Below, in pieces: positions 6,246-62,344 of a stretch of DNA of 64,000 nucleotides. The DNA is taken from NCBI GenBank assembly GCA_963798085.1, contig CAWCRS010000001.1, positions 32,001 through 96,000 on the forward strand, read 5' to 3'. Made by a program: the position numbers and the translations under genes. The notes beneath the pieces are model-generated. The model worked only from the letters and a program-made list of their open reading frames with translations, ran no database searches and was not told where the DNA came from. Within the stretch, counting starts at the first letter, position 1. Each line of letters starts with the position of its first letter. This DNA is from an uncultured Gemmatimonadales bacterium. Lineage in GTDB: Bacteria > Gemmatimonadota > Gemmatimonadetes > Longimicrobiales > RSA9.

Positions 6246-9200
6246 CTATGAAATCGGCCGCCCCGCTTTCGTCACCACGAACGGGACCCCCAGGCGCTGG
6301 GCCAGCGCATTGATGGACGCGAGATCGGTGGTGATCAGTGTCTGGAGCTGCGCCAGATCGACCTGCAGCTCCTGCTGCTGCTCGACCCACACCTGGCGCA
6401 TGCCCTGCGTGGGCGCGCCGTCGCCATCGGTGACCCAGTTGTAAAGGGGTGTCAGACGGGAATAGAGCTGCGAGCCTTTCGCCAGGATATCGTACGTCAC
6501 GGTGGCATCGGGGTTGTGCATCCGTTTTTCCAATGAATCGAGGCGGGCGATGAGCGTGTCCGCGCGGGCGCGCAGCGGCGCCGCGTCGGCGCGGTCCTTC
6601 ACGGCCGCACTGCGGTCGCGCAGCTGCTGGCGGATGTCTTTCACCTGCGCCACCGCATCGGCCAGCTGATCCAGCGCGGCTTTCAGTTCACGGCCCAGCG
6701 CCTGCTGCGCCGCGCGGTCCGCATCGCTCGCGCTCACGCGCGGATCGGCGCGTACCACGAGCTGCGCCGTCATGCTCGTGCCCGCGACCGTGAGCCGCAG
6801 TGTGTACGTGCCGGGCGGCGCCCATGGCCCCACAGCCGGATCGCCGGTATCGATCATCGCATTGTGGATGCGCTGCGCGCCTTCGAGCCGCAGGTCCCAC
6901 ACCGCGCGCTGGATGCGCGCCGAGTCCGTCTTCAGGTCCGGCTTCGGTTCTTCTTCATCCTCGGAATGGCCATCCTTCGGTTTCGCGACGCTGCTCAGTC
7001 TGCGTACGACGCTGCCCTGCGCATCCAGCACCTCGAGCGTGACTTCGCCCGCCGGCTTCGACTTCAGCCAGTAATTGACGATCGCGCCGGCCGGCGGATT
7101 GTCGCCGGCCGGCTTCTCTCCGGTGCCACCCGCCAGCCGCCATTCGATCGCAGGCTGCGGCGGAAACAGGAACATGTCGTTAGCAGCCAGCGAGTCGCTC
7201 CACATGCGCACGGGCGTGAGGTCATCGAGGATCCAGATGCCGCGGCCGTGCGTCGCCAGCACGAGATCGTTGTCCTTCACGACCAGGTCGTGCACGGCCA
7301 CAGTCGGCAGATTGAGTTTGAGCGGCCGCCACGTGCGGCCCTCATCGGCCGAGTACATCACGCCGCGCTCCGTCCCCAGGTACAGTATGCCTCGCCGCGT
7401 CGGGTCGGCGCGCAGTGCGTGCAGGTACACGTCCTGCGGCAGCCCGCCGTCGAGACGCGTGAACGACTTCCCGTAATCCGTGGTGCGATAGAGCCAGGGG
7501 TGCATGTCGTCGAGCCGGTGCGCGTCCACGACGATGTACGCGGTGCCCGCATCGAAAGGCGATGCCTCGATCAGACTGACCGTACCCCACTCCGGAAAAC
7601 CGGGCATGGCCTTCGTGACGTCGGTCCAGGTGCCGCCGCCGTCGCGTGTGATGTGCACGAGGCCGTCGTCGCTGCCCGCCCAGATGAGTCCCGCCTGCAG
7701 TGGCGACTCGGCGACGGCGAAGATGGTGCCGTAGTACTCGACGCCGGTGTTGTCGCCATTGATGGGGCCACCCGACCATTTCTGCTTCGACTTGTCGTTG
7801 CGCGTGAGATCCGGACTGATGGCCTGCCACGTCTGTCCGCCATCGCGCGTGCGGAACAGCACATTGGCCGCGTGATAGATGACGTTCGGATCATGCGGCG
7901 AGGCGGCAATGGGGGCGGTCCACTGAAAGCGGTACTTCGCGTCGATGTCGCCGTGGCCGCTGGGATTCTCGGGCCAGGCGCTGATGTTGCGCGCACTGCC
8001 GGTCTGGCCATCCCAGCGCGTGATGATGCCCAGGTACTCGCCCGCAAACACGATGTTGGGATCGTCCGTGCGCGACACCACGAAGCCCGCCTCGCCGCCA
8101 CCCACATCGTGCCAGTCGCCGGCCGTGATGCCGCCGCCCTTCAGGCTGTTGCTGGGTCCCTGTGCCGTGCCAATGTCCTGTTGCGCGCCCTGCACGTCGT
8201 AGGGCACACGGGAGTCCGTCGCCACGTGATAGAGCTGGCCCAGCGGCATGGGCGGCCAGTACCAGGACTCGCCGCCATCCACGCTGATGCTGACGCCACC
8301 GTCGTGGCCCACGATGATGCGCCTGGGATTATCGGGATCGATCCAGGCGTCGTGATTGTCGCCGTGCGGCGCTTCCTTCACGATGGTGAGCGTGCGCCCG
8401 CCGTCGATCGTGTGCACCAGCGGCACCTGCGGGAACCAGACTTCGTCCGCGTTCTGCGGGTTCACGGTCAGCGAGGCGTAATACCACGTGCGCTGCGTCA
8501 GCAGGTGCGAGGGACTGATGCGGTTCCAGCTGTCGCCGCCATCGTCGGAGCGGAACAGTCCGCCACTGTCTGCCTCGATGATCGCGTAGACGCGGCGGCC
8601 GTCGGACGGCGCCACGGCCACGCCGCTCCGGCCCCACACGCCGGCCGGCAGGCCCTTGCCCGTCAACTGCGTCCAGGTGTCGCCCGCATCGCGTGACATC
8701 CAGAGCCCGCTGCCCGGCCCGCCGTCCACCAGCTCCCAGGGCCGGCGCCGGGTCTGCCACAGCGTCGCAAATACGATGTTAGGATTGGACGGATCGAGGG
8801 CGACGTCGGCTGCGCCCGTGTCCGGGTCCTTCTCCAGGACCTGCTGCCAGGTCCGGCCGCCGTCGATGGTGCGATACACGCCGCGCTCCGGATTGGGGCC
8901 GAAGGCGTGACCCAGCACCGCGGCAAACGCCGTGTTGGCATCGCGCGGGTGCACCACGATGCGGCCGATCTGGCCTTCCTGCGTCCACACGTGCGTCCAG
9001 GTCTTGCCCGCATCCAGCGACCGGTAAATGCCATTCCCTGCCGCCACATTCCCGCGAATGTTGGCCTCGCCCGACCCGACGTAGATGACGTTCGGGTCGG
9101 ACGGCGCGACGGCGATCGCGCCAATGGACGAGATGGGCTGGTCGTCGAAGATCGGTTTCCAGGTGAGCCCGCCGTCCTGTGAGCGCCACACGCCGCCCGA

Positions 9201-9446
9201 TGCGCTGGCGGCGTAATACGTGGTTGGATCGCCCGCAATGCCCTGCACGCGGCTGACCCGCCCGCCCTGGAACGGGCCGACCAGCCGGTACTGGAGACTG
9301 TCGAAGGCGACCGGCTGTCGCGGGAGTGCGGCGGGCACCGTTGGCTGTGCCGCCGGTTTCGCTGGCCCTTTCTTTTGTGCGTCGACGCGGCCCGGGATGA
9401 AGAGGACCAGGAGAGAGATGGCGACAGTGGCAAGACGCGTCTTCAT
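6246..9446 (-). CDS. VPS10/sortilin-like BNR (Asp-box) repeat glycosyl hydrolase-like protein, secreted
   Basis: 1066 aa; signal peptide; YRLVGP..GGRV; many S/TxDGGxTW Asp-boxes; LATHGRGIWILDD; helical C-terminus. Confidence 0.9.
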   Translation of the reverse strand: MKTRLATVAISLLVLFIPGRVDAQKKGPAKPAAQPTVPAALPRQPVAFDSLQYRLVGPFQGGRVSRVQGIAGDPTTYYAASASGGVWRSQDGGLTWKPIFDDQPISSIGAIAVAPSDPNVIYVGSGEANIRGNVAAGNGIYRSLDAGKTWTHVWTQEGQIGRIVVHPRDANTAFAAVLGHAFGPNPERGVYRTIDGGRTWQQVLEKDPDTGAADVALDPSNPNIVFATLWQTRRRPWELVDGGPGSGLWMSRDAGDTWTQLTGKGLPAGVWGRSGVAVAPSDGRRVYAIIEADSGGLFRSDDGGDSWNRISPSHLLTQRTWYYASLTVNPQNADEVWFPQVPLVHTIDGGRTLTIVKEAPHGDNHDAWIDPDNPRRIIVGHDGGVSISVDGGESWYWPPMPLGQLYHVATDSRVPYDVQGAQQDIGTAQGPSNSLKGGGITAGDWHDVGGGEAGFVVSRTDDPNIVFAGEYLGIITRWDGQTGSARNISAWPENPSGHGDIDAKYRFQWTAPIAASPHDPNVIYHAANVLFRTRDGGQTWQAISPDLTRNDKSKQKWSGGPINGDNTGVEYYGTIFAVAESPLQAGLIWAGSDDGLVHITRDGGGTWTDVTKAMPGFPEWGTVSLIEASPFDAGTAYIVVDAHRLDDMHPWLYRTTDYGKSFTRLDGGLPQDVYLHALRADPTRRGILYLGTERGVMYSADEGRTWRPLKLNLPTVAVHDLVVKDNDLVLATHGRGIWILDDLTPVRMWSDSLAANDMFLFPPQPAIEWRLAGGTGEKPAGDNPPAGAIVNYWLKSKPAGEVTLEVLDAQGSVVRRLSSVAKPKDGHSEDEEEPKPDLKTDSARIQRAVWDLRLEGAQRIHNAMIDTGDPAVGPWAPPGTYTLRLTVAGTSMTAQLVVRADPRVSASDADRAAQQALGRELKAALDQLADAVAQVKDIRQQLRDRSAAVKDRADAAPLRARADTLIARLDSLEKRMHNPDATVTYDILAKGSQLYSRLTPLYNWVTDGDGAPTQGMRQVWVEQQQELQVDLAQLQTLITTDLASINALAQRLGVPFVVTKAGRPIS

Positions 9447-9906
9447 GGAGGCCTCGGTTACATGGATGCGCAGATCGTTCGTGCAGGCACTGCTGCTGCG
9501 TATTCGCAGATGCGTTCCTGCGACGACGCAAGTCGGTGTCCGCGCGCGCGTCAGTCGACAGGCGCGCCGCCCGCGCGCGACGGCGCCGGATTCCCCGTTT
9601 TCGAGATACAGCGCACGACGCGGTTCCGAAAGCGGAAGGGCTCAGTGGCAGTGGCCTCGACAGTGACGCCAGGAGCCGCAGCAGCCGTCTCCGCCTTGCA
9701 CCGGACGGGCCACGGAATCAGCGCGCAGTCAGCACAATGCACTGCCCGCGAGTGCGCGGCCACAGCAGGCTGGCCGGAGCCCGGGCACCTGGCACCCGCG
9801 ATCGAGCCTCCGCACAACGCCGTCGGAGCTGCTCGGTGAAGCCCTCACAGCGGCCCACGCATCACCGTCCGCATCGGTTGTGCCCGCACGGTTTCGTCGC
9901 ATCTTT

Positions 9907-9927
9907 TCCACTCACCGGGTGAGTGGA
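9907..9927. promoter_or_regulatory. Perfect palindrome overlapping the padR ribosome-binding site; candidate PadR operator
   Basis: TCCACTCACC-G-GGTGAGTGGA, ending 3 nt before ATG 9931. Confidence 0.55.
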
Positions 9928-9930
9928 GAG

Positions 9931-10262
9931 ATGAAAACGACACCTTCCGAATTGCTGCTGAGCACGGTCGATGTCCTGATCCTGCGGGCGCTGGCGGCGG
10001 AATCAATGCACGGGTATGCGATCTCGCGCTGGCTGGACCAGCGCAGCGGGGGTGCGCTCGCCGTGGATGGCCGGCGTTGTACCAGGCGCTGCATCGTCTC
10101 GAGCAGCGCAAGCTGGTCGTCGCGTCGTGGGGGCTCTCCGAGAACAACCGGCGCGCCGGGTTCTATGAGCTGACGCCGGAGGGCCGCAGGCGGCTCCGTT
10201 CGGAGTCCGCTGTCTGGCAGCGCTACGCGGACGCGGTGACGCGCGTGCTGAGTCCGGCTTGA
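9931..10262 (+). CDS. PadR-family transcriptional regulator; frameshift at about 10070
   Basis: MKTTPSELLLSTVDVLILRAL..MHGYAISRWL in one frame continues as LYQALHRLEQRKLV..WGLSENNRRAGFYELTPEGRRRL in another. Confidence 0.85.
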
Positions 10263-10270
10263 GAACTTGG

Positions 10271-10455
10271 ATGGCATCGAGGCGACCCAGGCTGTTCCGA
10301 TTCCCGGGGCGCTCGCGCGACGCGATCGCGCGTGATGTCGACGCCGAGCTGCAGTTCCACATCGACGCGCGGACAGCGGACCTTTTCGCGGAAGGCTCGA
10401 GTCCCGAGGCGGCGCAGCTGCAGGCGAGGGAGGAGTTTGGCGACATCGAGTCCGC
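10271..10455 (+). pseudogene. N-terminal fragment ('permease prefix' domain) of a duplicated orphan ABC permease (ADOP)
   Basis: RDVDAELQFHIDARTADL..EGSSPEAA...AREEFGD directly after padR; similarity then stops abruptly. Confidence 0.7.
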
Positions 10456-10882
10456 TTCCCCGAAAGAAGTATGGGAGGACTGGTTGACGGAGAGACGCAG
10501 GCCAGCCACCGGCTGCGGTATTCTCCCGTTACTGACGGCCGGCGACCCGGTCGTGGCTGGCCGAATCGAAGAACCCGGAATGGGAGACGACGTCGTCGCC
10601 ATGATTCATCACCATCACAAGATCACGCGGTATGCGACCGGCGCGGACAATGCAGTCGAGCGCTCCCGCGAAGCGGACTGGATCGATGTGACGAGGGCGT
10701 CATGTCGTTCGGTCTGCCGCGCGCCTTCCCGCGTGAAGGGTTCGCGGCCTTCCCCGATGCCGGCTTCCACAGGCAGGTGGTGCAGCTGACTTTTCAAGGC
10801 TGCTGCGCCACCTGCTGAATCCACTGCCCATGTTCCGCTTCTGATGCCTGGCTGCGCTGACCTGCGGTGTTGTAGGACGGAG

Positions 10883-11858
10883 TCAGCGCTGCCACAGCGC
10901 GGACGCCGGGTCGATGCGGGCCGCGCGCCAGCTGGGCAGGCCAGACGCGGCAACGCCCGCGCCGAGCAGCAGCACACTCACGGCAGCCAGTGACAGCACA
11001 TCCGTCGGACTCACGCCGAACAGCATGAAGCGCAGCAGTCGCGTGAGCAGCAGTGCGCCGGCCAGCCCGATGCCGGTGCCCGCCACCATGAGTGCCGTGC
11101 CCTGGCGCATGACGAGGCGGATCACGGACCAGCGATTGGCGCCCAGCGCGATGCGCAGGCCGATCTCCGGTACGCGCTGCACCGCACTGTATGCGACGAC
11201 GCCGTACACACCGCGGACCAAACGGCTGATCGGACCAGCCCGCATTCGCCCACAGCTCGACACTGCCGCGCAGCGTCTGGCCCGGGTGCCAGAAGTCCGC
11301 CGGCATGACGCCAATGATGGTGAACAGATCTTCGTCGATCCTGATCTTGCGACCGATCACGGCGGGATCGCCGCCGAAGCGCCGCTTCCACAGTGCATCG
11401 CTGATCACGGCAGTCAGGCCAATGCCCGGCACGTAGTCGCTCGGCTGGAACGTGCGTCCGATTTCCGCCCTGGCGCCCAGCAGGTCGAAGTAGTTGATGT
11501 CGACGAGCAGCGCCTCGACACGCTCCGGCTCGTTGCCGCCCGTCAGGTTCGCGTCGATCGGGTACACACCGCTGATGCCCGAGAACAGTCCGGGATCGTC
11601 GCGCATGTCGAACAGCTCGAGTGGCGCGAGGCCGGCATCGCGAATCCCAATGCCCGGCATGTCGGCCGTCACGCGCACCAGCGTGCTCTCGTCGCGCACC
11701 GGGAACGGGCGCAGCAGCACGCCATTGATCACCGAGAAGATCGCGCTGTTCGCGCCGATGCCGATGGCCAGGGTGCCTATGCCCAGCAGCGCGAAGCCGG
11801 GGCTCTTCCAGAACGCACGCAGCGCGGCGCGCAGATCCATCGGCAGCAGACGAATCAC
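10883..11858 (-). pseudogene. MacB/FtsX-type ADOP permease with a large internal deletion (junction at about 11213)
   Basis: N-terminal DLRAALRAFWKSPGF..LAIGIGANSAIFSVINGVLLRPFP plus a periplasmic domain, joined out of frame to the last FtsX domain GVYGVVAYS..QRVPEIGLRIALGA...AARIDP. Confidence 0.8.
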
Positions 11859-48827: not shown

Positions 48828-51059
48828 ATGCCTGCAAGCCTGACGTTCCCCGGTGTTTACCTCGAAGAATTGCCCAGCGGCGTTCGCACGATCACCGGCG
48901 TGGGCACATCGCTGGCCGCGTTCCTCGGCTTTACGCCGCGCGGCCCCGTGAATCGTGCGGTGCGCGTGCAGAGCTTCGCCGATTTCGAGCGCAGCTTCGG
49001 CGGGCTCAGCACGGCCAGTCCGCTCGGGCACGCGGTGCGACAGTTCTTCCTGAACGGCGGCGCCGACGGCTATGTGGTGCGCGCCGCGGCGGGCGCACAG
49101 ACCGCGAGCGTGCAGCTGCTCGACACGGGCGGCAATCCCTCGCTCGAGGCCACGGCCTCGTCGCCGGGCGCCTGGGGCAACTTCCTCCGCCTGACAGTCG
49201 ATTACGCCACCGCATCGCCCGAGAGCACGTTCAACCTGCGCGTGACCGAGCTGGTGCTGGACGGCGGCACGCCGCGTGTGGGACGCGCGGAGAACTTCGG
49301 CGGCCTCACCATGAACAGTCTGGCCGCGAACTACGCGGTCGACGTAGTGAACGCCGCTTCACAGCTGATCCAGCTCACGCGTCTGGCGGGCGCAGCGGCC
49401 AATGCGGGCACGGCGTTCAGCGGCCCGATCGTGGCCGCTGACCTGGCCGCGCTCGACGCGGGCCACAACCGCCTGGCCGTCTTCGTCAACGGACAGGGTC
49501 CGTTCGAGGTAGCGCTGGCGCTGCCGGTCGCCGATGTCGCGGATCTCGCGAACAAGATCACGACCGGCCTGAACGCGACCGGCGATCCGCTGGCCGCGGG
49601 CGTCACCGTCTCCGCCGCGGGCAGTCGCATTCAGCTCACGTCGGGCACGACGGGTGACGACTCGACGCTTCGCGTGGGTCCCGCCAGCACCAATAATGCA
49701 TCCATCAGGCTGCACTTCGGCGTGATCAATGGCGGTCGCGAAGTCAATGCGGCGGGCGTGATCCGTCCCTCGCCCAGCGGCACGACAGGCGGCGCCGCCA
49801 TTGACACGGCCACGGTGGCGACCGGCCCGCTCGACGTCACGGTCACGCCGCGTGTGGGCGGCGCGGCCACCGACACGCTCGCGCTCACCGTTCCCCCGCA
49901 GCCGCTGACCGCGGCGCAGGTGCGCACCATTGTCGAGCAGGCCCTGCGTGCGGCCACACGCCCGGCGCTGCGCACAGCCACGGTCGCGCTGGTGGATAAC
50001 AGACTTGTCATCACTGCCGCCAATGACGATGCCACCCGCCTCGGCTTCGGCAACACGCTGGCGGCACCGCTCGGTCTGACGGGCGGCACCAGCAATGTTG
50101 CCATGTATGCGCTGGGCACCGGTCCGACAGCGGGGCAGCAGGTGCAGGGCACGTCGGGTTTCGATGGCAATCCGCCTTCGCCTGCCGACCTGATCGGCAG
50201 CCGCGCCGCACGCACCGGCCTCTACGCGCTCGAGGGCGTCGACCTCTTCAACATCATGCTGGTGCCCGGCGAAACCTCGAACGCAGTGTTATCCGAGGCG
50301 CTGGCCTACTGCACCGAGCGCCGCGCCATGCTCATTGTCGATCCGCCGCAGAATGCGCAGTCGGTGGATGATGCGACGACGTGGCTCGACTCGATCGGCG
50401 CCCTGCGCAGCCGCAACGCGGCCGCCTACTTCCCGTGGGTCTCGCTGGAGGATCCGGTGCGCGGCTTCCGTCCCACCGGCTTCCCGCCCTCGGGCACCGT
50501 GGCCGGCGTCTGGGCGCGCACGGATACCGAGCGCGGCGTGTGGAAGGCACCCGCCGGCACCGACGCCAGCCTGCGCGGCACCATCGGCCTCGCCAGCACG
50601 CTGACCGACGCGCAGAACGGCGTGCTCAATCCGCTCGGCCTCAATGTGCTGCGCACACTGCCCGTGTTCGGCTCCGTGGTCTGGGGCGCGCGCACACTGC
50701 GCGGCGCCGACCAGATGGCCGACGAATACAAGTACATCCCGGTGCGCCGCCTCGCGCTGTTCCTCGAGGAAAGTCTGTTCCGCGGCCTGCAGTGGGTGGT
50801 GTTCGAGCCCAATGATGAGCCGCTCTGGGCGCAGATCCGTCTCAATGTCGGCGCCTTCATGCAGACGCTGTTCCGCCAGGGCGCATTCGCCGGCACATCG
50901 CCACGCGACGCCTATTTCGTGAAGTGCGACAGCGAGACGACGACGCAGAACGACGTGAATCTCGGTGTGGTGAATGTGGTCGTCGGATTCGCGCCGCTCA
51001 AGCCGGCGGAATTCGTCGTTATCAAGATCCAGCAGATGGCCGGCCAGGTGCAGACCTGA
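48828..51059 (+). CDS. Contractile tail sheath protein (Afp2/3/4-like)
   Basis: FPGVYLEE, GVWKAPAG, VWGARTL, YIPVRR, WVVFEPN, VGFAPLKPAEFV. Confidence 0.96.
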   Translation: MPASLTFPGVYLEELPSGVRTITGVGTSLAAFLGFTPRGPVNRAVRVQSFADFERSFGGLSTASPLGHAVRQFFLNGGADGYVVRAAAGAQTASVQLLDTGGNPSLEATASSPGAWGNFLRLTVDYATASPESTFNLRVTELVLDGGTPRVGRAENFGGLTMNSLAANYAVDVVNAASQLIQLTRLAGAAANAGTAFSGPIVAADLAALDAGHNRLAVFVNGQGPFEVALALPVADVADLANKITTGLNATGDPLAAGVTVSAAGSRIQLTSGTTGDDSTLRVGPASTNNASIRLHFGVINGGREVNAAGVIRPSPSGTTGGAAIDTATVATGPLDVTVTPRVGGAATDTLALTVPPQPLTAAQVRTIVEQALRAATRPALRTATVALVDNRLVITAANDDATRLGFGNTLAAPLGLTGGTSNVAMYALGTGPTAGQQVQGTSGFDGNPPSPADLIGSRAARTGLYALEGVDLFNIMLVPGETSNAVLSEALAYCTERRAMLIVDPPQNAQSVDDATTWLDSIGALRSRNAAAYFPWVSLEDPVRGFRPTGFPPSGTVAGVWARTDTERGVWKAPAGTDASLRGTIGLASTLTDAQNGVLNPLGLNVLRTLPVFGSVVWGARTLRGADQMADEYKYIPVRRLALFLEESLFRGLQWVVFEPNDEPLWAQIRLNVGAFMQTLFRQGAFAGTSPRDAYFVKCDSETTTQNDVNLGVVNVVVGFAPLKPAEFVVIKIQQMAGQVQT

Positions 51060-51098: not shown

Positions 51099-51626
51099 AT
51101 GGCACAGTTCACGGTCAATGCCACGCGCTTCGATCCCTACAAGAACTTCAAGTTCCGCGTGAAGTGGGATGGTCGATACGTCGCGGGCGTGAGCAAGGTC
51201 GGTTCGCTCAAGCGCACCACGGAAGTGGTGAAGCACCGCGAGGGCGGCGATCCCAGCTCGAGCCGGAAATCCCCCGGTCGCACGGAATTCGATGCCATCA
51301 CGCTGGAGCGCGGCGTGACACACGACACCGAGTTCGAGAAATGGGCCAACAAGGTGTGGAACTTTGGCTCGGGCCTGGGCGCGGAGACGTCGCTGCGTGA
51401 TTTCCGCAAGGACGTGATCCTCGAGGTCTACAATGAAGCCGGTCAGCTGGTGCTGGCCTACAAGATCTTCCGCTGCTGGGTCTCCGAATTCCAGGCGCTG
51501 CCGGACCTCGACGCCAACGCCAATGCTGTCGCCATCCAGCACATCAAGCTGGAGAACGAAGGCTGGGAGCGTGACTACAATGTGGTCGAGCCGCAGGAGC
51601 CCAGCTTCACTGAACCGCTGACGTAG
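51099..51626 (+). CDS. Tail tube protein (T4 gp19/Afp1-like)
   Basis: RFDPYKNFKFRVKWDG, HREGG, PGRTEFDAITLERG, LENEGWE. Confidence 0.95.
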   Translation: MAQFTVNATRFDPYKNFKFRVKWDGRYVAGVSKVGSLKRTTEVVKHREGGDPSSSRKSPGRTEFDAITLERGVTHDTEFEKWANKVWNFGSGLGAETSLRDFRKDVILEVYNEAGQLVLAYKIFRCWVSEFQALPDLDANANAVAIQHIKLENEGWERDYNVVEPQEPSFTEPLT

Positions 51627-52420: not shown

Positions 52421-53199
52421 TGGGCGCGCTCGATCGTCTGGTCTCGCGCACCCTGGAGAGCGCGCCCGTGGCCCGGCCCGTGCTGACACCACTGTTCGCA
52501 GCACCCGGCCCGCCGCCGCCATTGCCCGGCCTGCCCGTACCGGAGGCTCGCGGTGCCGTCCCTGCCGGTCGCGCAACCGCCGAGCCGCGGTCGAGCGATC
52601 GGCCGGCAGGCGCCCGCGCAGAGCGACTCTCGCTCGAGGAATGGCTCGACTCCCCGGCCCGGCAGGCCAGCGCATCCGACCGCTTCACGCGCGCGGTTTT
52701 GTCAGCGGGCGAGGCTGACGCGAATGTTGCGCGCCCGCGGGGTGCAGCGTGGGCGGATCCCGCAGAGAGTGCGGCTCACGTGGCGGCGGTACGCGAGACC
52801 GTGCCCACCGGGTCGGCGCCGCGTGCGCCCATCGCCGACGCCGTCACGCAGGGCGGCGATGCGGCGCAGGCCGCGCGTGGGTCGGCCGCCGAGGCGATCG
52901 ACAGGCTGGCCCGCCGCCTGGACGCGCGCGAAGCGCAGGATGGCGCACGCCCCGCTCCACGGATTGCAGGCGACGATGCCGCCTCGGCTCGCCGGCCCGC
53001 TGCCGCGAACCCGCCGGTCGTCTTCGAACAGTCCGTTAGCAGCGCTGCCGGCGCGCCTGCGGAAGCGCCGGTGGTGCGGGTGAGCATTGGCCGCGTGCTG
53101 GTGCGCGCCATCCTGCCGCCGCCTTCGCCTCGACCCGCGGCGCGACCGGGCCCGGCCGGACCCACGCTCGAGGAGTACCTGCGCGGAGGCCGGCGATGA
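52420..53199 (+). CDS. Pro/Ala-rich low-complexity eCIS protein
   Basis: Coupled to both neighbours; C-terminal VVRVSIGRVLVRA...TLEEYL. Confidence 0.65.
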   Translation: MGALDRLVSRTLESAPVARPVLTPLFAAPGPPPPLPGLPVPEARGAVPAGRATAEPRSSDRPAGARAERLSLEEWLDSPARQASASDRFTRAVLSAGEADANVARPRGAAWADPAESAAHVAAVRETVPTGSAPRAPIADAVTQGGDAAQAARGSAAEAIDRLARRLDAREAQDGARPAPRIAGDDAASARRPAAANPPVVFEQSVSSAAGAPAEAPVVRVSIGRVLVRAILPPPSPRPAARPGPAGPTLEEYLRGGRR

Positions 53200-54505
53200 G
53201 CAATGCGCTGTGCATTGCCACGGTCACGTCGACACTGCGGCGCGAACTGACGCTCGCACTGACGGCGAACGTGGCCGGTCGCGTGCCCAACACCACGGTC
53301 ACGACCCTGCGGCCGGACCGCGTGCAGAATCCGCTCGCCGATCCCACTGTCAATCTGTTCCTCTACGCGGTGACGCCGGACCCGTCGTTCCGCAACGTGG
53401 ATCTGCCCACGCGCAGCAGCAACGGCCGGCTGACGGCGGGAAACCGCGTCGCGCTCGACATGCACTACCTGCTCACGTTCCACGGCGATGATGCCACGCT
53501 CGTGCCGCAGCGGCTGCTGGCCATTACCGCGAGAACGCTGCACGCGCACCCCGTGCTGACGGCGCAGATGATCCGTGACACGGTGGCGGACGCGGCGACG
53601 TTTCCGTTCCTGGCCGGCGCCGACCTGGATCAGGCCGATGAGCCCGTGCGCATCACGCCCGCGCCGCTGACGCTCGAGGAGACATCGAAGTTCTGGGCCA
53701 TGTTCCCGCAGACGTCGGCCGCGCCATCACTGAGTTACATCGCGGCCGCCGTGCTGGTCGCTGCCGAGGCGCAGCCGGCGGCAGGACCGCCGGTACGGCT
53801 GCGCAATGTCTACGTGGTGCCGGCCGCACAGCCGTTCATCGAGCGCGTTACTGGGCCGGCCGGCATCAACGACCCGCTCGTCGCGAGCAGTACGCTGGTC
53901 ATCAGCGGACGTGCGCTGCGCGCCGATATCACACAGCTGCGCGTGGAGGCGGCCACCATCGATGTAGTGTCCAATCCAGCGGGCACGGAGATCCGCGTGC
54001 CGGTGCCCGCGACCGTACTCGCCGGACTGCGGGGCGCGCAGATCATCCAGCCGCAGCAGCTGGGCACACCGCCGGTGCCGCACCGCGGCATGGAATCCAA
54101 CGTCGCGCCGTTCCTGCTGCGGCCCGCGATCGCGCAGGACAATCCCGGCAACTTCCTGGTCTCGGCCGGCAACATCGTTGCGGGTGCGGGCAATCTGCGT
54201 ACGGCTGACATCACGTTCACCGTGACGCCCGCGGTGGGCAAGCGGCAGCGCATGCTGCTCTACCTGATCGAGCGGCTGCCGCCTGCGGATCGCGCGCCGC
54301 GCGTGTTCGCGGTCGTAGCGCCATCGCGTGACGTGCCGGCCGAACCTGAGACGCGCGCGGTGTTCACGCTCACGGCCGCGAACATCGAGGCCGGTGATTA
54401 CGTGGCCAGGCTGCAGGTGGATGGCGCCGACAGCACGTTCGTCGCCGACGCCGATCCGCAGAGCCCCACGTTCAACCAGTTCATTGCGCCCCGCGTGCAG
54501 GTCCC

Positions 54506-54509
<4 letters not shown>
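53196..54509 (+). CDS. DUF4255 / Pvc16-Afp16-like cap (tail terminator) protein
   Basis: MSNALCIATVTSTLR, VNLFLY.V, LDMHYLLT, LH.HPVL. Confidence 0.88.
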
Positions 54510-56508
<1,999 letters not shown>

Positions 56509-56512
<4 letters not shown>

Positions 56513-56808
56513 GCGCGCACGCCGCGACCCGCCGGCCACAGCATGGCTCGCCCTCTCGGCCGCCGCGGTACGAGCTGCACATCGAGGAAGTCGTACTCGA
56601 GGGCTTCGACTCGCTGCCGGAACGAGCACTGCGCACAGCAATCGAGCAGGAGCTGACTCGCCTGTTCCGCGAGCGCGGCGGGCGGGCGGGCGGGCGGGAC
56701 CTCGCAGTGGACCGCGTCGATGCGGGCGCCTTCCAGGCCACCAATGTGCGCGCCGCACCTCTGGGCGCCAGCATCGCAAACGCGGTGTTCGACGGGTTGC
56801 CACGATGA
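56509..56808 (+). CDS. Small eCIS-associated hypothetical protein
   Basis: ATGA-coupled on both sides; YELHIEEVVLEGF...AIEQELTRLF. Confidence 0.7.
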
Positions 56809-58079
56809 GTGAGCGCGCCGCCGTGCAGACTGCAACGCCCGTCCCGTCGAGTGCGGCACGCGCCGCTTCACCGGTGCGGCTGCTGCGCCGCAAGTGCGGC
56901 TGCGGCGGCGACCACGAAGGCGAGTGCGACGAGTGCAGGAAGAAGCGCATGGGCACCGTGCAGCGCTCGGCAATCGATGCCGCGTCGCTGGATCGCATTC
57001 CGCAAGAGGTCGACGAAGAGCTGGCGCGCGCCGGCACGACACTCGAGCCGGGTGTGCGCCGCTTCATGGAGCAGCGCTTCGGCCACGACTTCGGCACTGT
57101 GCGCGTGCACAGCAATGCGCGGGCCGCCGCGTCCGCTGATGCCGTGCGGGCACGGGCCTACACGGTGGGCTCTGACGTCGTGTTTGCCGCCGGCCAGTAC
57201 CAGCCGGAGACCGGTGAGGGGCGGCGCCTGCTGGCGCACGAGCTGACCCACGTCGTGCAGCAGTCGGGCAGTGCCTCGCCGGCCGCGGATTCCGCCACGG
57301 CGGAAGCCCGTGACGAAGCGGAAGCGGTGCGCGCCGAACACATGGTCGCGGCGTCGTCGCCTGCACCCGTTGCGGTTTCTTCCTCGCCCGGCAGCGCGCT
57401 GCGCCGGCAGGGTGGCGGCACGCAGGGGCAGCCTGCGCCGAAGAAGCCCAGCGCGATCGAGAAGCTTACGCACCTGACCTTCCATCTCGGTGATGCCACC
57501 TTCGAGATCGACCTGCCTTCCTCCGTCTCAGCGACCCTGCCCATTGAGCTGTCCGGCAGGACGAAGATCACGTTCGCGCTGAAAGGCACGACATCGGGCG
57601 CGTTCACCTTCACGGCCACGCTCGACGGCATTCCCCACGTGCGCATCATCGCGAAGGCCGGCGTCGAAGTGGGCGACAAGTCGAAGGCCACCGCGGGCAT
57701 CACGGTCGAAGCCACGCGCAAGGTCTGCCGCGTGAAGAACGAAGGCGAGATGCGCAAGGATCTGCAGAGTGCGGGCGACAAGCTCAAGAGCGCGATCGTC
57801 GACTTTCAGAAGCTGCCCGACGCCCTGGCGGGTGTGAGCGATGAGGTGGAGCGCGCGAAGATCATTGGTACGCGGGCGGGTGCAGTCGGCTCGGCCATTG
57901 GCGCAGTGAACAGCGCCATCGAGAAGGCGAAGGCGCCCTGCAAGGAGACGCCGGTGTTCTCGTTCGATTTCGGCGTGCAGGCGCCACTGCAGCCGGCGCA
58001 GCCGGACTTCTTCGGCCCCGGCTCCTCGGCGCCGCCCATGGGCCCATCCGTGGGCGCCACCTTCACGTGGCATTTCTAA
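56805..58079 (+). CDS. DUF4157 (eCIS core) protein with variable C-terminal domain; candidate effector
   Basis: RKCGCGG..ECDEC; MEQRFGHDFGTVRVH, ARAYTVG, LLAHELTHVVQQ; ends in GATFTWHF. Confidence 0.9.
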   Translation: MSERAAVQTATPVPSSAARAASPVRLLRRKCGCGGDHEGECDECRKKRMGTVQRSAIDAASLDRIPQEVDEELARAGTTLEPGVRRFMEQRFGHDFGTVRVHSNARAAASADAVRARAYTVGSDVVFAAGQYQPETGEGRRLLAHELTHVVQQSGSASPAADSATAEARDEAEAVRAEHMVAASSPAPVAVSSSPGSALRRQGGGTQGQPAPKKPSAIEKLTHLTFHLGDATFEIDLPSSVSATLPIELSGRTKITFALKGTTSGAFTFTATLDGIPHVRIIAKAGVEVGDKSKATAGITVEATRKVCRVKNEGEMRKDLQSAGDKLKSAIVDFQKLPDALAGVSDEVERAKIIGTRAGAVGSAIGAVNSAIEKAKAPCKETPVFSFDFGVQAPLQPAQPDFFGPGSSAPPMGPSVGATFTWHF

Positions 58080-58083
58080 CGCC

Positions 58084-59043
58084 ATGTTGAGCGCCTGCCG
58101 CCTCCGTTGCAGCGCCGTCGCGCGCACGAGCGTAATGCCGGTGCTGCGCCGCACCTCGCATGCGCCGTTGATGCTGCACGGCGCAGTACGCGCCGCTGCC
58201 GATGGCGCCGCGAACGCTGCGCCGCTGCTCGCGCCCGCAACACACGATTTCGGACGCGTACTGGTGAGCAGCCGCGGTCATGGCGGCTTCGGTGATGGCG
58301 GCGACAAGCCGGTGGTCGCGGACAAGGGCAAGGAAGGCGAGCAGGGCAAGGACGCCGGCCCGGGCTCCGCAGGAACGCCGGCACCACCCGTCACATGCGT
58401 GCCCGACAAGGCGCTCGACTTCACGGACTACACGGGCACCGCACCGTCGGGCACGGGACACGCCGGCAAGACCACGTACGACTTCAATGTCGTGAGCGGC
58501 ACGGGCGGCGATGTCATCCAGGCGAAGTTCGCTGGCGCCAGCTCGTGGCTGCGGTCCGACGTCCTCAACGGCGGCGACCGCAATGCCAACGGCTGCGCCG
58601 GTATAACAACGGATTGCGAGGCCAGCTTCACCCAGGAAGGCGACTATTACGAGCTGGATTCGCGACCCGTCCCGGGGTGCGCCGCGAGCGAGCGCTACCC
58701 GGCCGGCACGAAGGCGATGAAGAAGAGCGAGTGCCGCTCCAAAGTCGAACCCGTGTGCATGACAACGAAGAAGAAAGAGGCCGCGCGCGTGCTGCACCAT
58801 GAGCAGAGGCACCTCGACCTGGGCTGCGCGCTGGCCGCCATGGGCACGGCCGCCATTGCCGCGGGCAGCAGCTCGAGTGCAGCGCTGGACCAGGTCAAGT
58901 ACACGGATGGTGTGCTGACCGCGAAATACGACAGCGAAGCGAAGAACGGTTGTGATGCCACTGCGCAGACCAAGTGGGACACCGAGATCGGCGGCGGACT
59001 GCCGTCGTACAAACTCATGACGAGGCCGAAGAAGAAGAAATGA
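58084..59043 (+). CDS. Cys-rich DUF922-like putative zinc metallopeptidase; candidate effector; start uncertain
   Basis: LDFTDYTG.AP, SSW, VLHHEQRHLD, YDSE.KNG....Q.KW; N-terminal HDFGRV. Confidence 0.7.
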   Translation: MLSACRLRCSAVARTSVMPVLRRTSHAPLMLHGAVRAAADGAANAAPLLAPATHDFGRVLVSSRGHGGFGDGGDKPVVADKGKEGEQGKDAGPGSAGTPAPPVTCVPDKALDFTDYTGTAPSGTGHAGKTTYDFNVVSGTGGDVIQAKFAGASSWLRSDVLNGGDRNANGCAGITTDCEASFTQEGDYYELDSRPVPGCAASERYPAGTKAMKKSECRSKVEPVCMTTKKKEAARVLHHEQRHLDLGCALAAMGTAAIAAGSSSSAALDQVKYTDGVLTAKYDSEAKNGCDATAQTKWDTEIGGGLPSYKLMTRPKKKK

Positions 59044-59708: not shown

Positions 59709-60020
59709 ATGCTGCCGCCTGACAGCCGCTACAGCACGATTTCCACCGCCACGTACACCCGCGCGGATGGCGTGACAATCGTGTACCTGCGACGCCGGTT
59801 GTTGCCCGATCCGGAACGGCTCGCGCAGATCGCCCTGCACGCCGTGGTCGCGGGCGAGCGCCCCGACCTGGTCGCCGCACGTTATTACGCTAACCCGGCC
59901 TTATGGTGGCGCATCGCCAATGCCAATGGCGTGCACGATCCCGCCGAGCTGACCGATACGCCCGGAAGGCGGCTGCGCATCACGCTGCCCGAAGGCATTC
60001 CGGGGCCGGCCCATGCGTGA
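59709..60020 (+). CDS. LysM / tail-X-like protein
   Basis: SRY, YLRRR, GERPDLVAARYY....WWRIANAN. Confidence 0.85.
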   Translation: MLPPDSRYSTISTATYTRADGVTIVYLRRRLLPDPERLAQIALHAVVAGERPDLVAARYYANPALWWRIANANGVHDPAELTDTPGRRLRITLPEGIPGPAHA

Positions 60021-61141
60021 CGCCATGCTGCTCACGCTCATGGTCGGGCCCGGTGTGCCCGTGCCTGTGCCCCGCTCGGTGCTGGACGCGCTGACTTCCG
60101 TCCGCGTCATCACCGACTCGGGCGAAACCATGAGCGGCTTCGAGCTGACCTTCACCATGGACGCGCGCTCCCCGCTGCAGACGCTGTTTCTGCTCGCAGG
60201 CGGATCGCTGCCGCCCATCTTCCGCGTCGTGCTGGTAGCCACGGTCAATGGTATTGCCGAAGTGCTGATCGATGGCGTGATGACCAGCCAGCGCACGGCG
60301 CAGGCCGATGATGGCAAGGTCACGCTCACCGTGACGGGCAAGGACCTGCTCGCCGTGCTCGACTACCTGCCGCCCCTGCCCATTCCCTGGCCCGCCATGC
60401 CCGCGGAAGTGCGTGTGCTCGCCATTCTCGCGAAGTATGCGGTGTTAGGCGTTGTGCCGCTGGTCATTCCCAGCATCATGGTCAATGTGCCCATACCCAC
60501 GGACCGCATACCGCGGCAGCAGGGCACGGATCTCGAGTACGTAAAGGCGCTCGCGGATGAAGTGGGCTACGTCTTCTACCTGAAGCCGGGGCCGGTGCCG
60601 GGCATGAGCGTGGCCTACTGGGGACCCGAGATCAAGGTGGGCGCGCCGCAGTCCGCGCTGACGCTCGATGTCGAGAACAACCGCAACGCCATTTCCATTT
60701 CGTTCAGCTTCAATGCGGAAGCCGCCGAGCTGCCCATTGTCTGGATCCAGGAGCCCATCTCCGAAGGTGCCCATCGGTATTCCCATACCCGACATCACGC
60801 CGCTGAATCCGCCGCTCGCCGCGATTCCGCCGATCCCGAAGAAGTTTCCGGCCATCGATGAGACGGCGAAGTACTCGCCCGTGCGCGCACTGCTCGTGGG
60901 CCTGGCCAGGGCTGCACAGCGCGCCAATGTCACCACCGGCGATGGTTCCCTCGATGTGCTGCGCTACGGCAGGCTGCTGCGGGCGAGGGAGCTGGTGGGC
61001 GTGCGCGGCGCCGGGACCGCGTTCGATGGACTGTACTACGTCTCGCGCGTCACGCACGAGATCGGCCGCGGCGCGTACACGCAGAGCTTCACACTGAAGC
61101 GCAACGGCCTCGTCTCCAATGTTCCGCAGGTACCGGTATGA
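60013..61141 (+). CDS. gpD/gp27-like baseplate hub (VgrG N-terminal half); 1-nt insertion at about 60761
   Basis: SGFELTF, LTVTGKDL, QQGTDLEY in frame 1. Removing one base joins PISKVPIGIPIPDITPLNPPL...LDVLRYG.LLRA..LVGVRGAG..FDGLYYV..VTH. Confidence 0.85.
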
Positions 61142-61653
61142 GCATTCCGCAGCGCTTCTATGGCAAGTATCGCGGCACGGTGATCAACAATATCGATCCC
61201 ATGCAGCTGGGCCGCGTGCAGGTAATGGTGCCTGATGTGTCGCAGGTGGTGCCCACCAGCTGGGCGATGCCGTGCATGCCGTTCACGGGCAAGCAGATGG
61301 GCATGTGGGTGCTGCCGCAGATCGGCGCCGGTGTGTGGGTCGAGTTCGAGCAGGGCGATCCCGACTATCCCATCTGGGCCGGCTGCTGGTGGGGCTCCGC
61401 CGCGGAGCCGCCCGCACTCGCGCTGGCCGCGCCACCCGCCGTTCCTAACTTCGTCATACAGACGCAGGCGCAGAACACGCTGATGATCAGCGATGTGCCC
61501 GGCCCCACCGGCGGCATCCTGCTGAAGACCACGACCGGTGCCATGATTTCCGTGAATGACATCGGCATCACGATCTCGAACGGCAAGGGCGCGACCATCA
61601 TTCTGGCCGGCCCGACGGTGACGATCAACCAGGGCGCACTGGCGGTGACCTGA
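61138..61653 (+). CDS. Baseplate assembly protein V / gp5-like spike (VgrG C-terminal half)
   Basis: FYGKYRGTV..NIDP..LGRV, WAMPC.P, P.IGAGVWVEFEQGD...PIW; short beta-helix tail. Confidence 0.92.
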   Translation: MSIPQRFYGKYRGTVINNIDPMQLGRVQVMVPDVSQVVPTSWAMPCMPFTGKQMGMWVLPQIGAGVWVEFEQGDPDYPIWAGCWWGSAAEPPALALAAPPAVPNFVIQTQAQNTLMISDVPGPTGGILLKTTTGAMISVNDIGITISNGKGATIILAGPTVTINQGALAVT

Positions 61654-61988
61654 TGCCCGGACCCCTCGCCCATCTCGGCATGGTGGCCATCTGCCCGCAC
61701 GGCGGCCAGCTCAGTGAGATCACAACCAACGCGCGGGTCCTGGTGAGCGGCCAGCCTGTCGTGACCGTGGCGGATCAGTACCCGATCGCGGGCTGCACTT
61801 TCACGCTGCCCGGGCCCAAGCCATCGCCCTGCATCCGCGCGCAATGGCTGACGCCCGCGCTGCGCGTCCTGGTCAATGGACAGCCGCCCATTCTCCAGAC
61901 CAGCAGCGGGCTCTGCCTGTCGCCGGAGCAGGCGCCGCAGGGGCCGCCCACGATCATTACCACGCAACCGCGTGTGATCGGCACATGA
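61653..61988 (+). CDS. PAAR-like spike tip protein
   Basis: ICPHGG, GC.F, PC, RVLVNGQP, GLC. Confidence 0.8.
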   Translation: MPGPLAHLGMVAICPHGGQLSEITTNARVLVSGQPVVTVADQYPIAGCTFTLPGPKPSPCIRAQWLTPALRVLVNGQPPILQTSSGLCLSPEQAPQGPPTIITTQPRVIGT

Positions 61989-62344
61989 ACCTCGACTTTC
62001 CGCTCGGCTTCGATGGCCGCGGCCGTAGCGCCGCGACGACGCCCGAGGAACACGTGCGCGACCTCATTGAGCAGGTGCTCTTCACTTCGCCGGGTGAGCG
62101 GGTGATGCGGCCGGACTTCGGCAGCGGACTCATGCAGCTGGTCTTCGCACCCGTGGGTGGCGAGATCGCCGCCGCTACGCAGATGCTGGTGCAGAGTTCG
62201 CTGCAGCACTGGCTGGGCGACCTGATCGATGTCGAGGCGGTCGATGCCAGCTTCGATGATGGCGTGCTCAGCGTCAGCGTGCAGTACACGCTGCGCCAGA
62301 GCGGCGAGCGGGCTGTGGCCGAATTCGCGAGGCCCGCGACATGA
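61985..62344 (+). CDS. gpW/gp25-family baseplate protein (Afp9-like)
   Basis: HVRDLIEQVLFTSPGERVMRPDFGSG. Confidence 0.93.
   Translation: MNLDFPLGFDGRGRSAATTPEEHVRDLIEQVLFTSPGERVMRPDFGSGLMQLVFAPVGGEIAAATQMLVQSSLQHWLGDLIDVEAVDASFDDGVLSVSVQYTLRQSGERAVAEFARPAT

Follow-up and report, generated by a model that had tools for sequence, protein, structure and literature searches.

We analysed a 64,000-nucleotide stretch of DNA, hereafter the window, from the genome of an uncultured Gemmatimonadales bacterium (GenBank assembly GCA_963798085.1, contig CAWCRS010000001.1, positions 32,001–96,000). The window carries genes for an extracellular contractile injection system (eCIS), and the gene studied here sits in the eCIS operon and encodes a 424-residue protein with a DUF4157 domain and a C-terminal domain of about 203 residues. 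Judging from the searches described below, this C-terminal domain is a new, unnamed and widely conserved family, and the protein carrying it probably acts as a toxin without enzymatic activity, directed against the cell envelope of a target bacterium. We tentatively interpret the domain as a lid-gated, membrane-inserting envelope effector, a reading to which we assign a probability of about 35%. The effector domain is new; as a DUF4157 cargo of an eCIS, the protein belongs to a known kind. Feature coordinates are collected in Table 1.

Cargo gene and protein architecture

The ATG of the cargo gene and the stop codon of a small open reading frame (ORF) upstream of it overlap as ATGA. All peptides quoted in a preliminary description of the window, made from the sequence alone, were found in the translation in the order given there, and the protein ends in SVGATFTWHF followed by the stop codon. 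From the N-terminus, it comprises a disordered region, the DUF4157 domain (now eCIS_core, PF13699, the sole Pfam match in the protein), a linker and the new C-terminal domain. A full-length AlphaFold2 (AF2) model contained two ordered domains with the disordered linker between them (predicted template-modelling score [pTM] 0.44), and in this model the DUF4157 and C-terminal domains appear as two independent domains on a string. The preliminary description had called the protein a DUF4157 cargo of an eCIS without a signal peptide. Both points held: the first was borne out by the PF13699 match and by the sheath, tube, Pvc16, ATPase, spike and gp25 genes around it, and no signal peptide was apparent in the first 50 residues, where the maximum 9-residue Kyte–Doolittle mean was 0.81 and the N-terminus was predicted to be disordered. 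A segment resembling a transmembrane helix was also absent over the whole protein (maximum 19-residue hydropathy window, 1.0).

In a 53-row full-length alignment, H145, E146 and H149 of the DUF4157 domain were near-invariant, and the consensus L-x-R-x-C...C-x-x-C, which lies in the disordered N-terminus, was retained in full-length family members. This cysteine cluster may form a zinc knuckle inside the loading region.

Because the order of disordered N-terminus, DUF4157, linker and variable, ordered C-terminal domain is the same as in the eCIS-encoded Cgo1 and Cgo2 proteins of AlgoCIS, the window protein is best read as a cargo of the Cgo1/Cgo2 type, and by analogy its residues 1–60 are a probable loading signal. 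In AlgoCIS, the lumen of the tube was described as filled with DUF4157 proteins that leave it when the particle contracts (PMC8894135), and the disordered N-terminal domain of Cgo1/2 is required for loading while DUF4157 is dispensable (preprint 10.64898/2026.05.27.728243). Tube loading was shown for Cgo1/2, whereas for the window cargo we infer it. The two also differ in their C-terminal domains, compared here by published description only: that of Cgo1 is termed metalloprotease-like, whereas that of the window cargo is a predicted β-meander with a helical hairpin and no enzyme motif.

A new family of C-terminal domains

An exhaustive HMMER search over 1.84 billion representative sequences retrieved 99 representatives of the C-terminal domain at E ≤ 1e-3, 86 at E ≤ 1e-10 and 17 at E ≤ 1e-30. 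Word-index homologue searches returned the query alone, with none among longer proteins, and a near-length search returned five proteins, two of them new. The domain had zero matches among Pfam, NCBIfam, PHROGs and PDB-sequence entries, and PDB sequence and profile searches with it gave nothing significant; the best match was a Rad50 coiled coil (E 0.069), and a profile match to parasporin-2 (2ztb) was likewise insignificant (E 0.16). The best ESM Atlas feature scores were 0.86 for the domain and 0.84 for its homologue P0050, below the threshold of 0.9 for a lead, and matches to Attacin_C/gloverin clusters at 0.78–0.79 are not evidence.

The family comprises about 100 representative clusters from Proteobacteria and at least one other phylum. 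Its members carry the domain almost always at the extreme C-terminus, and the domain end coincided with the ORF end in every locus. The eCIS_core domain was present in 58 of 87 members; DUF4157 is missing from about 20 members, which are shorter, and several of these begin with a polar, low-complexity N-terminus. Pattern scans built on a five-row alignment located five loci in species genomes (an unclassified metagenome-assembled genome [MAG], Azoarcus, Thiotrichales, Halomonas sp. HK25 and a gammaproteobacterial MAG) and 12 further loci in metagenomes. Among relatives the domain was rare: it was found in one of 60 related genomes and in none of 400 other genomes sampled from the phylum, a survey that is uninformative on phylogeny. 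In its distribution, the domain behaves as an exchangeable type of cargo rather than a core component. Two proteins of about 435 residues without DUF4157 (P0098 and P0100) matched only the first ~60 profile positions, in three tandem copies, and the N-terminal strands of the domain may thus exist elsewhere as a repeat unit.

Twelve columns were at least 90% conserved among the 87 members: G30, P39, L46, P47, F68, C109, G125, L128, C180, P184, G218 and F225 (domain numbering, in which residue 1 is protein residue 200). All are Gly, Pro, Leu, Phe or Cys, residues of structural type, and no polar residue reached 90% in the 87-row alignment. The best-kept polar residues, D75, H79, R81 and R106, were conserved at about 60–70% (H79 ~69%, R81 ~61%, position 75 being D or N). 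Because the domain lacks an invariant polar residue, a non-enzymatic mode of action is favoured, and the domain is probably not an enzyme.

Predicted fold

The AF2 model of the last 225 residues, computed with the 87-row alignment, had a mean predicted local distance difference test score (pLDDT) of 89.5 and a pTM of 0.68. Its strands span residues 24–29/32–37, 41–49, 55–63, 67–77, 80–89, 95–110, 181–195 and 216–223 (domain numbering), the first being broken at an invariant Gly, and its helices span residues 114–136 and 148–177; a Pro-rich loop (196–215) was of lower confidence. The fold thus consists of about eight long, amphipathic meander strands of 9–16 residues and a helical hairpin between strands 6 and 7, the tip of which varies in length among members and was still modelled at pLDDT ~96. 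The full-length model repeats the strands and helices of the domain model.

Structural neighbours were sought with Foldseek and with two VIA searches, one all-against-all and one over the top 1000 Foldseek chains, of which the best 50 matches each were considered. The top VIA matches were PapC, TamA, VDAC, BamA and Sam50 (Z 8.7–12.2). The all-against-all search gave PapC at Z 12.2 with a root-mean-square deviation of 7.2 Å, a Bdellovibrio OmpA pentamer at Z 10.7 (115 residues at 3.1 Å) and TamA at Z 10.6 (113 residues at 3.1 Å, model residues 30–225 on chain residues 271–396). OprB matched over 111 residues at 2.6 Å, and a KdgM-type porin and Omp33 were also matched. Over eight consecutive strands of TamA, OprB and Sam50, the backbone agreed within 2.6–3.2 Å for 106–113 residues (Z 8.4–10.6), and the second search agreed in placing outer-membrane barrels on top. 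These matches are partial, covering consecutive strands of 12–24-stranded barrels, and no classical 8-stranded barrel was among the best 50 of either search. The hairpin matched free coiled-coil hairpins alone (Z 8–9) and never jointly with the sheet; no solved structure among the best 50 VIA matches combined the two. Foldseek returned nothing at E ≤ 0.001 from the PDB (best, DnaK substrate-binding domains, E 0.06, TM score 0.17) or from BFVD.

The model therefore appears to be of an open, curved half-barrel sheet with a helical hairpin rather than of a closed barrel, and in it the sheet looks like half of a 16-stranded outer-membrane barrel. The preliminary description had proposed a β-barrel-like domain that acts as a membrane barrel or pore; the barrel-like sheet is upheld by the VIA scores, a closed barrel is not. 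A two-copy complex prediction (residues 20–225, 87-row alignment) scored 0.00 in both runs, which were made without controls, and is uninformative on oligomerisation.

Cysteine pair and hydrophobic face

Cys308 and Cys379 bracket the hairpin, in agreement with the preliminary description of two cysteines around a helical insert. Both were present in 94 of 101 non-redundant sequences and both absent from the other seven, and no sequence had a single one. Direct-coupling analysis (96 sequences, 177 columns, effective number of sequences [Meff] 91) ranked them as the second-strongest pair in the alignment. The simplest reading is that the pair forms a disulfide that would staple the base of the hairpin. 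A disulfide makes sense only in an oxidising compartment, so that the site of action would be oxidising.

Across the 87 sequences the strands alternate strictly, with one face ~100% hydrophobic and the other rich in Thr, Ser, Lys, Glu and Arg. The hydrophobic face is composed of L 23%, F 19%, V 19%, A 15%, I 13%, Y 1.3% and W 1.1% (Tyr and Trp together 2.4%). Its conservation exceeds that of the polar face (mean frequency of the top residue, 0.57 vs 0.44; entropy, 1.73 vs 2.37 bits), and it includes seven positions dominated by Ala or Gly (62, 84, 86, 96, 98, 192 and 219). The helices also carry conserved small residues (124, 125, 131, 164, 165 and 167), and helix 2 presents a wide face of hydrophobic and small residues (10 of 18 positions), beyond what a two-helix coiled coil needs. 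In known outer-membrane proteins, the lipid-facing belt is variable and flanked by Tyr/Trp girdles. Because the hydrophobic face of the studied domain is the more conserved one, has Ala/Gly positions and contains few Tyr or Trp, its statistics suggest a core packed against the helices and fit poorly with a lipid-facing belt.

Coupling ladders were found between strands 3 and 4 (z 4.6), 2 and 3 (z 3.4) and 7 and 8 (z 3.5). Two of the 13 strongest pairs, L60–I173 and I56–A176, connect strand 3 with helix 2, and isolated pairs (V42–S216 and D31–W223) connect the last strand with strands 1 and 2. At Meff 91, couplings are too weak to tell a closed sheet from an open one, to show which of its faces lies under the helices or to say if the last strand meets the first.

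C-terminal motif

The last strand ends in the consensus G-x-[TS]-Hy-T-Hy-[HRP]-F, where Hy is a hydrophobic residue. We counted the motif in 103 distinct tails that reach the end of the profile. Phe occupied the last profile position in 99, and in 95 the protein ends with it; positions -1, -3 and -5 were all hydrophobic in 93, Gly was at -8 in 89, and the pattern G(-8)xxHy(-5)xHy(-3)xF(-1) occurred in 82. Both -1 and -3 were aromatic in 41 tails. The bacterial β-signal is described as GxxAr-x-Ar, where Ar is an aromatic residue (PMC11341756), and this strict form occurred in six of the 103 tails; the conserved Gly lies at -8, vs -6 in the canonical signal. The domain motif is, as aligned here, a shifted relative of the canonical β-signal and not the signal itself. 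The preliminary description had named a β-signal at this end, to be given up if homologues did not keep the terminal aromatic pattern: the pattern is conserved, and the identity with the canonical motif did not stand. In the producer, five of the eight longest Omp85-family ORFs end in Phe after G-x-x-F. Because strand alternation is conserved over 87 sequences and the terminal Phe over 103 tails, both features lie far beyond chance.

Site of action

In four of the 87 members, the studied domain is fused to an OmpA-family peptidoglycan-binding domain, which lies between DUF4157 and the studied domain in the three that were checked. In published work, peptidoglycan-binding domains were noted on 68 predicted eCIS toxins (PMC11297309), and one DUF4157 cargo, BDI_2459, was reported to be toxic to Escherichia coli only if tagged for the periplasm (PMC12210884). 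Owing to the Cys pair, the OmpA fusions, these published peptidoglycan-binding toxins and the periplasm-only toxicity of a DUF4157 cargo, the putative site of action points to the periplasm of a diderm target.

The eCIS locus and its neighbours

The cargo gene lies downstream of the sheath, tube, cap and ATPase genes and upstream of the spike and gp25 genes, and further same-strand genes include a CIS_tube-like gene that narrowly missed the Pfam cut-off and a gpD-like hub gene. Just past the window lie a Baseplate_J gene, a Tail_P2_I-like gene and a gene for a 933-residue DUF6519 protein, the last of the eCIS genes. DUF6519 is described as the tail-fibre anchor eBAP5 (PMC12923769), and the region at the C-terminus of the protein that weakly matched a beta-helix may serve as a receptor domain for binding polysaccharide. 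A LuxR/GerE-type response regulator is encoded near this gene on the opposite strand.

The order ATPase, DUF4157 cargo, tube-like and baseplate genes was common to L005, L007 and L008 (Halomonas sp. HK25), the three loci annotated out of the five found in species genomes. The 99-residue ORF between the ATPase and cargo genes had zero matches in Pfam, NCBIfam and PHROGs; a homologue lies directly upstream of the L005 cargo gene (38% identity over 89 residues, E 1.1e-8), and the ORF may encode a cargo adaptor or chaperone. The ORF downstream of the cargo gene is 29–30% identical over ~235 residues to the C-terminal domains of second DUF4157 proteins in L008 (E 1e-23) and L007 (E 4e-29), which show weak DUF922 matches. 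It lacks the DUF4157 core, of which a short remnant of the first motif is left, and is probably a second cargo that has lost this core. The DUF922-like HExxH protein and the studied domain occurred together in three of four annotated loci (the window, L007 and L008), and L005 had the studied domain alone. In L008, an 884-residue subtilase with a proprotein-convertase P-domain (8685–11336) is encoded directly after the cargo gene with the studied domain.

The hub gene is split into two overlapping frames corresponding to residues 23–249 and 225–371 of the 373-residue L005 homologue, a frameshift in the assembly that may be a sequencing error or a broken gene. The producer genome had ten Omp85-family matches, and the producer is therefore a diderm with barrel-assembly machinery of its own.

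Table 1 Features of the eCIS locus and of the cargo protein (positions in the window unless stated otherwise).
Feature	Position	Strand	Evidence
Sheath gene	48828-51059	+	Pfam Phage_sheath_1, 1.2e-12
Tube gene (gp19)	51099-51626	+	Pfam Phage_T4_gp19, 6.8e-45
Pvc16-like cap protein	53196..54509	+	Pfam Pvc16_N, 8e-40
eCIS AAA+ ATPase (Afp15/Pvc15-like) with winged-helix domain (WHD)	54506..56512	+	Pfam AAA, 7e-27; WHD, 2.2e-15
Small ORF, 99 aa, between ATPase and cargo genes, overlapping both	56509..56808	+	ORF list
eCIS cargo gene, 424 aa	56805..58079	+	ORF list and translation; PF13699; full-length AF2
N-terminal region, aa 1-60, predicted disordered	56805..56984	+	pLDDT <50 for aa 1-31, low to ~aa 60
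C-x-C...C-x-x-C cluster, aa 31-44, within disordered N-terminus, L-x-R ahead	56895-56936	+	Alignment
DUF4157/eCIS_core domain, aa 80-155	57042..57269	+	Pfam PF13699, E 2.5e-33, 114.5 bits; pLDDT ~95-98
HExxH of DUF4157 domain, aa 145-149	57237-57251	+	Full-length alignment
Disordered linker, aa 194-220	57384..57464	+	pLDDT <50
New conserved C-terminal domain, aa 222-424 (~203 residues)	57468..58076	+	AF2, homologues
Cys308 (C109), end of strand 6	57726..57728	+	83/87
Helical hairpin, aa 313-375 (65-residue), between strands 6 and 7	57741..57929	+	AF2 pLDDT 95-98
Cys379 (C180), start of strand 7	57939..57941	+	83/87
Last strand with β-signal-like end, aa 415-424, Phe last	58047..58076	+	103 distinct tails
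Neighbour ORF ending in Cys-rich HExxH domain; start codon uncertain	58084..59043	+	Homology to L007/L008
gpD-like baseplate hub, two overlapping frames	60013-61141, break near 60755-60770	+	Comparison with L005
Spike OB domain gene (Phage_base_V)	61138-61653	+	Pfam
gp25 gene	61844-62344	+	Pfam
DUF6519 protein, 933 aa, last eCIS gene	L022 7604-10402 (G000:C1), just downstream of window		Weak C-terminal right-handed beta-helix match, E 1.6e-5, below cut-off

Possible modes of action

In the lid-gated interpretation, the soluble form of the domain would have its amphipathic helical hairpin, the lid, hiding the hydrophobic face of the curved β-meander, with the disulfide as a staple at the foot of this lid. 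Once injected into the periplasm, the domain would fold and become oxidised; at a membrane, the lid would be displaced, and the amphipathic sheet would enter the membrane, alone or as an oligomer, and breach the envelope or the inner-membrane barrier. The periplasmic site of action, lid opening and membrane insertion are what we infer. Cyt-type toxins have helical hairpins over long amphipathic strands, which are proposed to enter the membrane once the helices swing away. Likeness to these and other soluble-to-membrane β pore formers is one of concept, as none was among the Foldseek and VIA matches listed and the parasporin-2 profile match was insignificant, and the studied domain differs in its order of six strands, helical hairpin and two strands and in its delivery by injection rather than secretion.

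Several points weigh against this interpretation. Cover of the hydrophobic face by the helices is argued from sequence statistics and not from coordinates, and hydrophobic couplings between helices and sheet were mildly enriched (six of the top 20 vs 17.6% expected), an underpowered comparison at Meff 91. No solved pore-forming toxin was among the Foldseek and VIA matches listed, and oligomerisation, lipid binding and toxicity are all putative. An immunity gene was not evident next to the cargo gene, the tail fibre (DUF6519/eBAP5, with its weak beta-helix match) does not identify the target, and, if the hub frameshift is real, the eCIS of the window may be inactive. Finally, a soluble, compact fold built around a conserved core would suit a binding protein just as well.

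That last point leads to the next most plausible, though still doubtful, explanation, in which the half-barrel and lid would enclose a hydrophobic groove in the style of LolA, START or β-taco proteins and the domain, as a soluble periplasmic binder, would sequester an envelope lipid or lipid-linked precursor or block an envelope protein without forming a pore. The conserved, well-packed hydrophobic face with its small residues and the amphipathic helices would suit such a binder, as would the signs of periplasmic action. A head-group could be bound by semi-conserved D75, H79, R81, T105, R106 and T107, which cluster with the C-terminal carboxylate at the sheet end that also holds the termini and the putative disulfide. 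This polar cluster is not invariant, however, and LolA-, START- or TULIP-like structures were not among the Foldseek and VIA matches listed; a stoichiometric binder would also be a weak weapon given the few molecules delivered.

An improbable explanation, closest to the preliminary description, is that the domain mimics an outer-membrane protein (OMP). Unfolded cargo in the target periplasm, or in a eukaryotic cytosol, would be taken up through its β-signal-like last strand by the β-barrel assembly machinery (BAM) or translocation and assembly module (TAM) or by the mitochondrial sorting and assembly machinery (SAM), giving a foreign barrel or pore or a stalled hybrid barrel that blocks the machine. 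In the periplasm of a diderm, the terminal ...T-Hy-T-Hy-x-Phe strand would pair with strand 1 of BamA or TamA, and the half-barrel would be made into a foreign pore, possibly by joining of copies, or be trapped as a hybrid barrel that cannot close, while the disulfide-stapled hairpin and, in some members, the OmpA-type peptidoglycan anchor would remain periplasmic. The terminal motif counts fit this proposal, as do the best structural matches, which are outer-membrane barrels and include the first eight strands of TamA, BamA and Sam50, and the Cys pair and OmpA domains, which point to the periplasm. An open sheet that cannot close also resembles a stalled BAM client, a likeness that Foldseek returned with the open-sheet EspP–BAM state at an E of only 0.33, and in the AlgoCIS preprint (10.64898/2026.05.27.728243), eCIS cargo is taken to be loaded in an unfolded state.

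The domain shares with outer-membrane barrels (TamA 8us1/4n74, BamA 9cmw, OprB 4gf4 and Sam50 7btw) the long antiparallel meander, strict alternation and hydrophobic-x-hydrophobic-x-Phe end, but it differs from them in having no signal peptide, an apparently open sheet, a 65-residue hairpin, a Cys pair, Gly at -8 and a conserved face poor in Tyr and Trp. The rarity of the strict signal and of paired aromatics at -1 and -3, the absence of 8-stranded barrels from the best VIA matches and the conservation of the hydrophobic face above the polar face speak against mimicry, and a possible additional short strand, or a kink, at the invariant Gly may give an odd strand count. A Sec signal peptide as a route to the periplasm was not apparent in the cargo; injection could replace this route. 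Jamming of BAM is unattractive, as the few cargo molecules of a particle would hardly titrate it, and it is not obvious that one more pore would kill a cell whose outer membrane is porous already. Literature linking contractile injection systems to BamA-dependent effectors was not found among the titles and abstract openings surveyed.

We consider it quite improbable that the domain is an unrecognised enzyme acting on envelope components, for example around the L-D-G-x-P-H-x-R turn and the T-R-T-x-C segment. The D-G-x-P-H-x-R turn and T-R-T-V-C segment are indeed the best-conserved polar stretches, and validated eCIS toxins are described as mostly enzymes (PMC8213781), but the polar residues fall short of the 90% level, the Cys residues behave as a pair and not as a nucleophile, and no enzyme profile or fold was matched in Pfam, NCBIfam, PDB profiles or the VIA matches listed. 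Similarly small is the chance that the domain has a role within the particle itself, such as plugging the lumen, setting length, aiding assembly or partnering the neighbouring HExxH cargo in the manner of a chaperone: the fixed position of the gene after the ATPase and among structural genes, the co-occurring DUF922-like protein and the counting of DUF4157 as an eCIS 'core' domain (PMC8213781) are set against its scarcity in relatives and the phylum, its being one of many domains on DUF4157 proteins, its presence in L005 without the DUF922-like partner and the ~20 members without DUF4157. We rejected the idea that the domain makes a pore for release or lysis in the outer membrane of the producer itself, because the protein lacks a signal peptide and the family goes with the cargo architecture.

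Relation to known toxins and significance

Like the eCIS-associated toxins (EATs) described by Geller et al. (2021, PMC8213781) and Danov et al. (2024, PMC11297309), the window cargo has an N-terminal DUF4157 domain, a linker and a C-terminal toxin domain, and as in some predicted EATs, peptidoglycan-binding domains occur in a few members of the studied family. The validated EATs differ in being predicted enzymes (ADP-ribosyltransferase, deaminase, nuclease, peptidoglycan hydrolase and others). The studied domain was not described in the DUF4157 and contractile-injection literature compared, whose supplementary toxin and cluster tables lay outside the comparison and might list members. An eCIS effector described as barrel-like or pore-forming was likewise not found in the portions of this literature that were compared: 'barrel' and 'pore-forming' had no occurrences in the covered text of PMC11297309, nor 'pore-forming' in that of PMC12210884.

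Extracellular contractile injection systems are being engineered for protein delivery, and most of their natural cargo is of unknown function. Because the Phe is strictly the last residue, C-terminal tags, which are common on cargo, would probably destroy the function of this one. The family would add a non-enzymatic, envelope-directed type of cargo to a list dominated by enzymes, and its co-varying Cys pair and peptidoglycan-binding fusions argue, at the level of sequence, for delivery by some eCIS into the bacterial periplasm. If BAM were involved, this would be a new attack on an essential, drug-relevant machine, and if the domain did mimic an OMP, it would be the first effector to exploit the target's own barrel-assembly machine.

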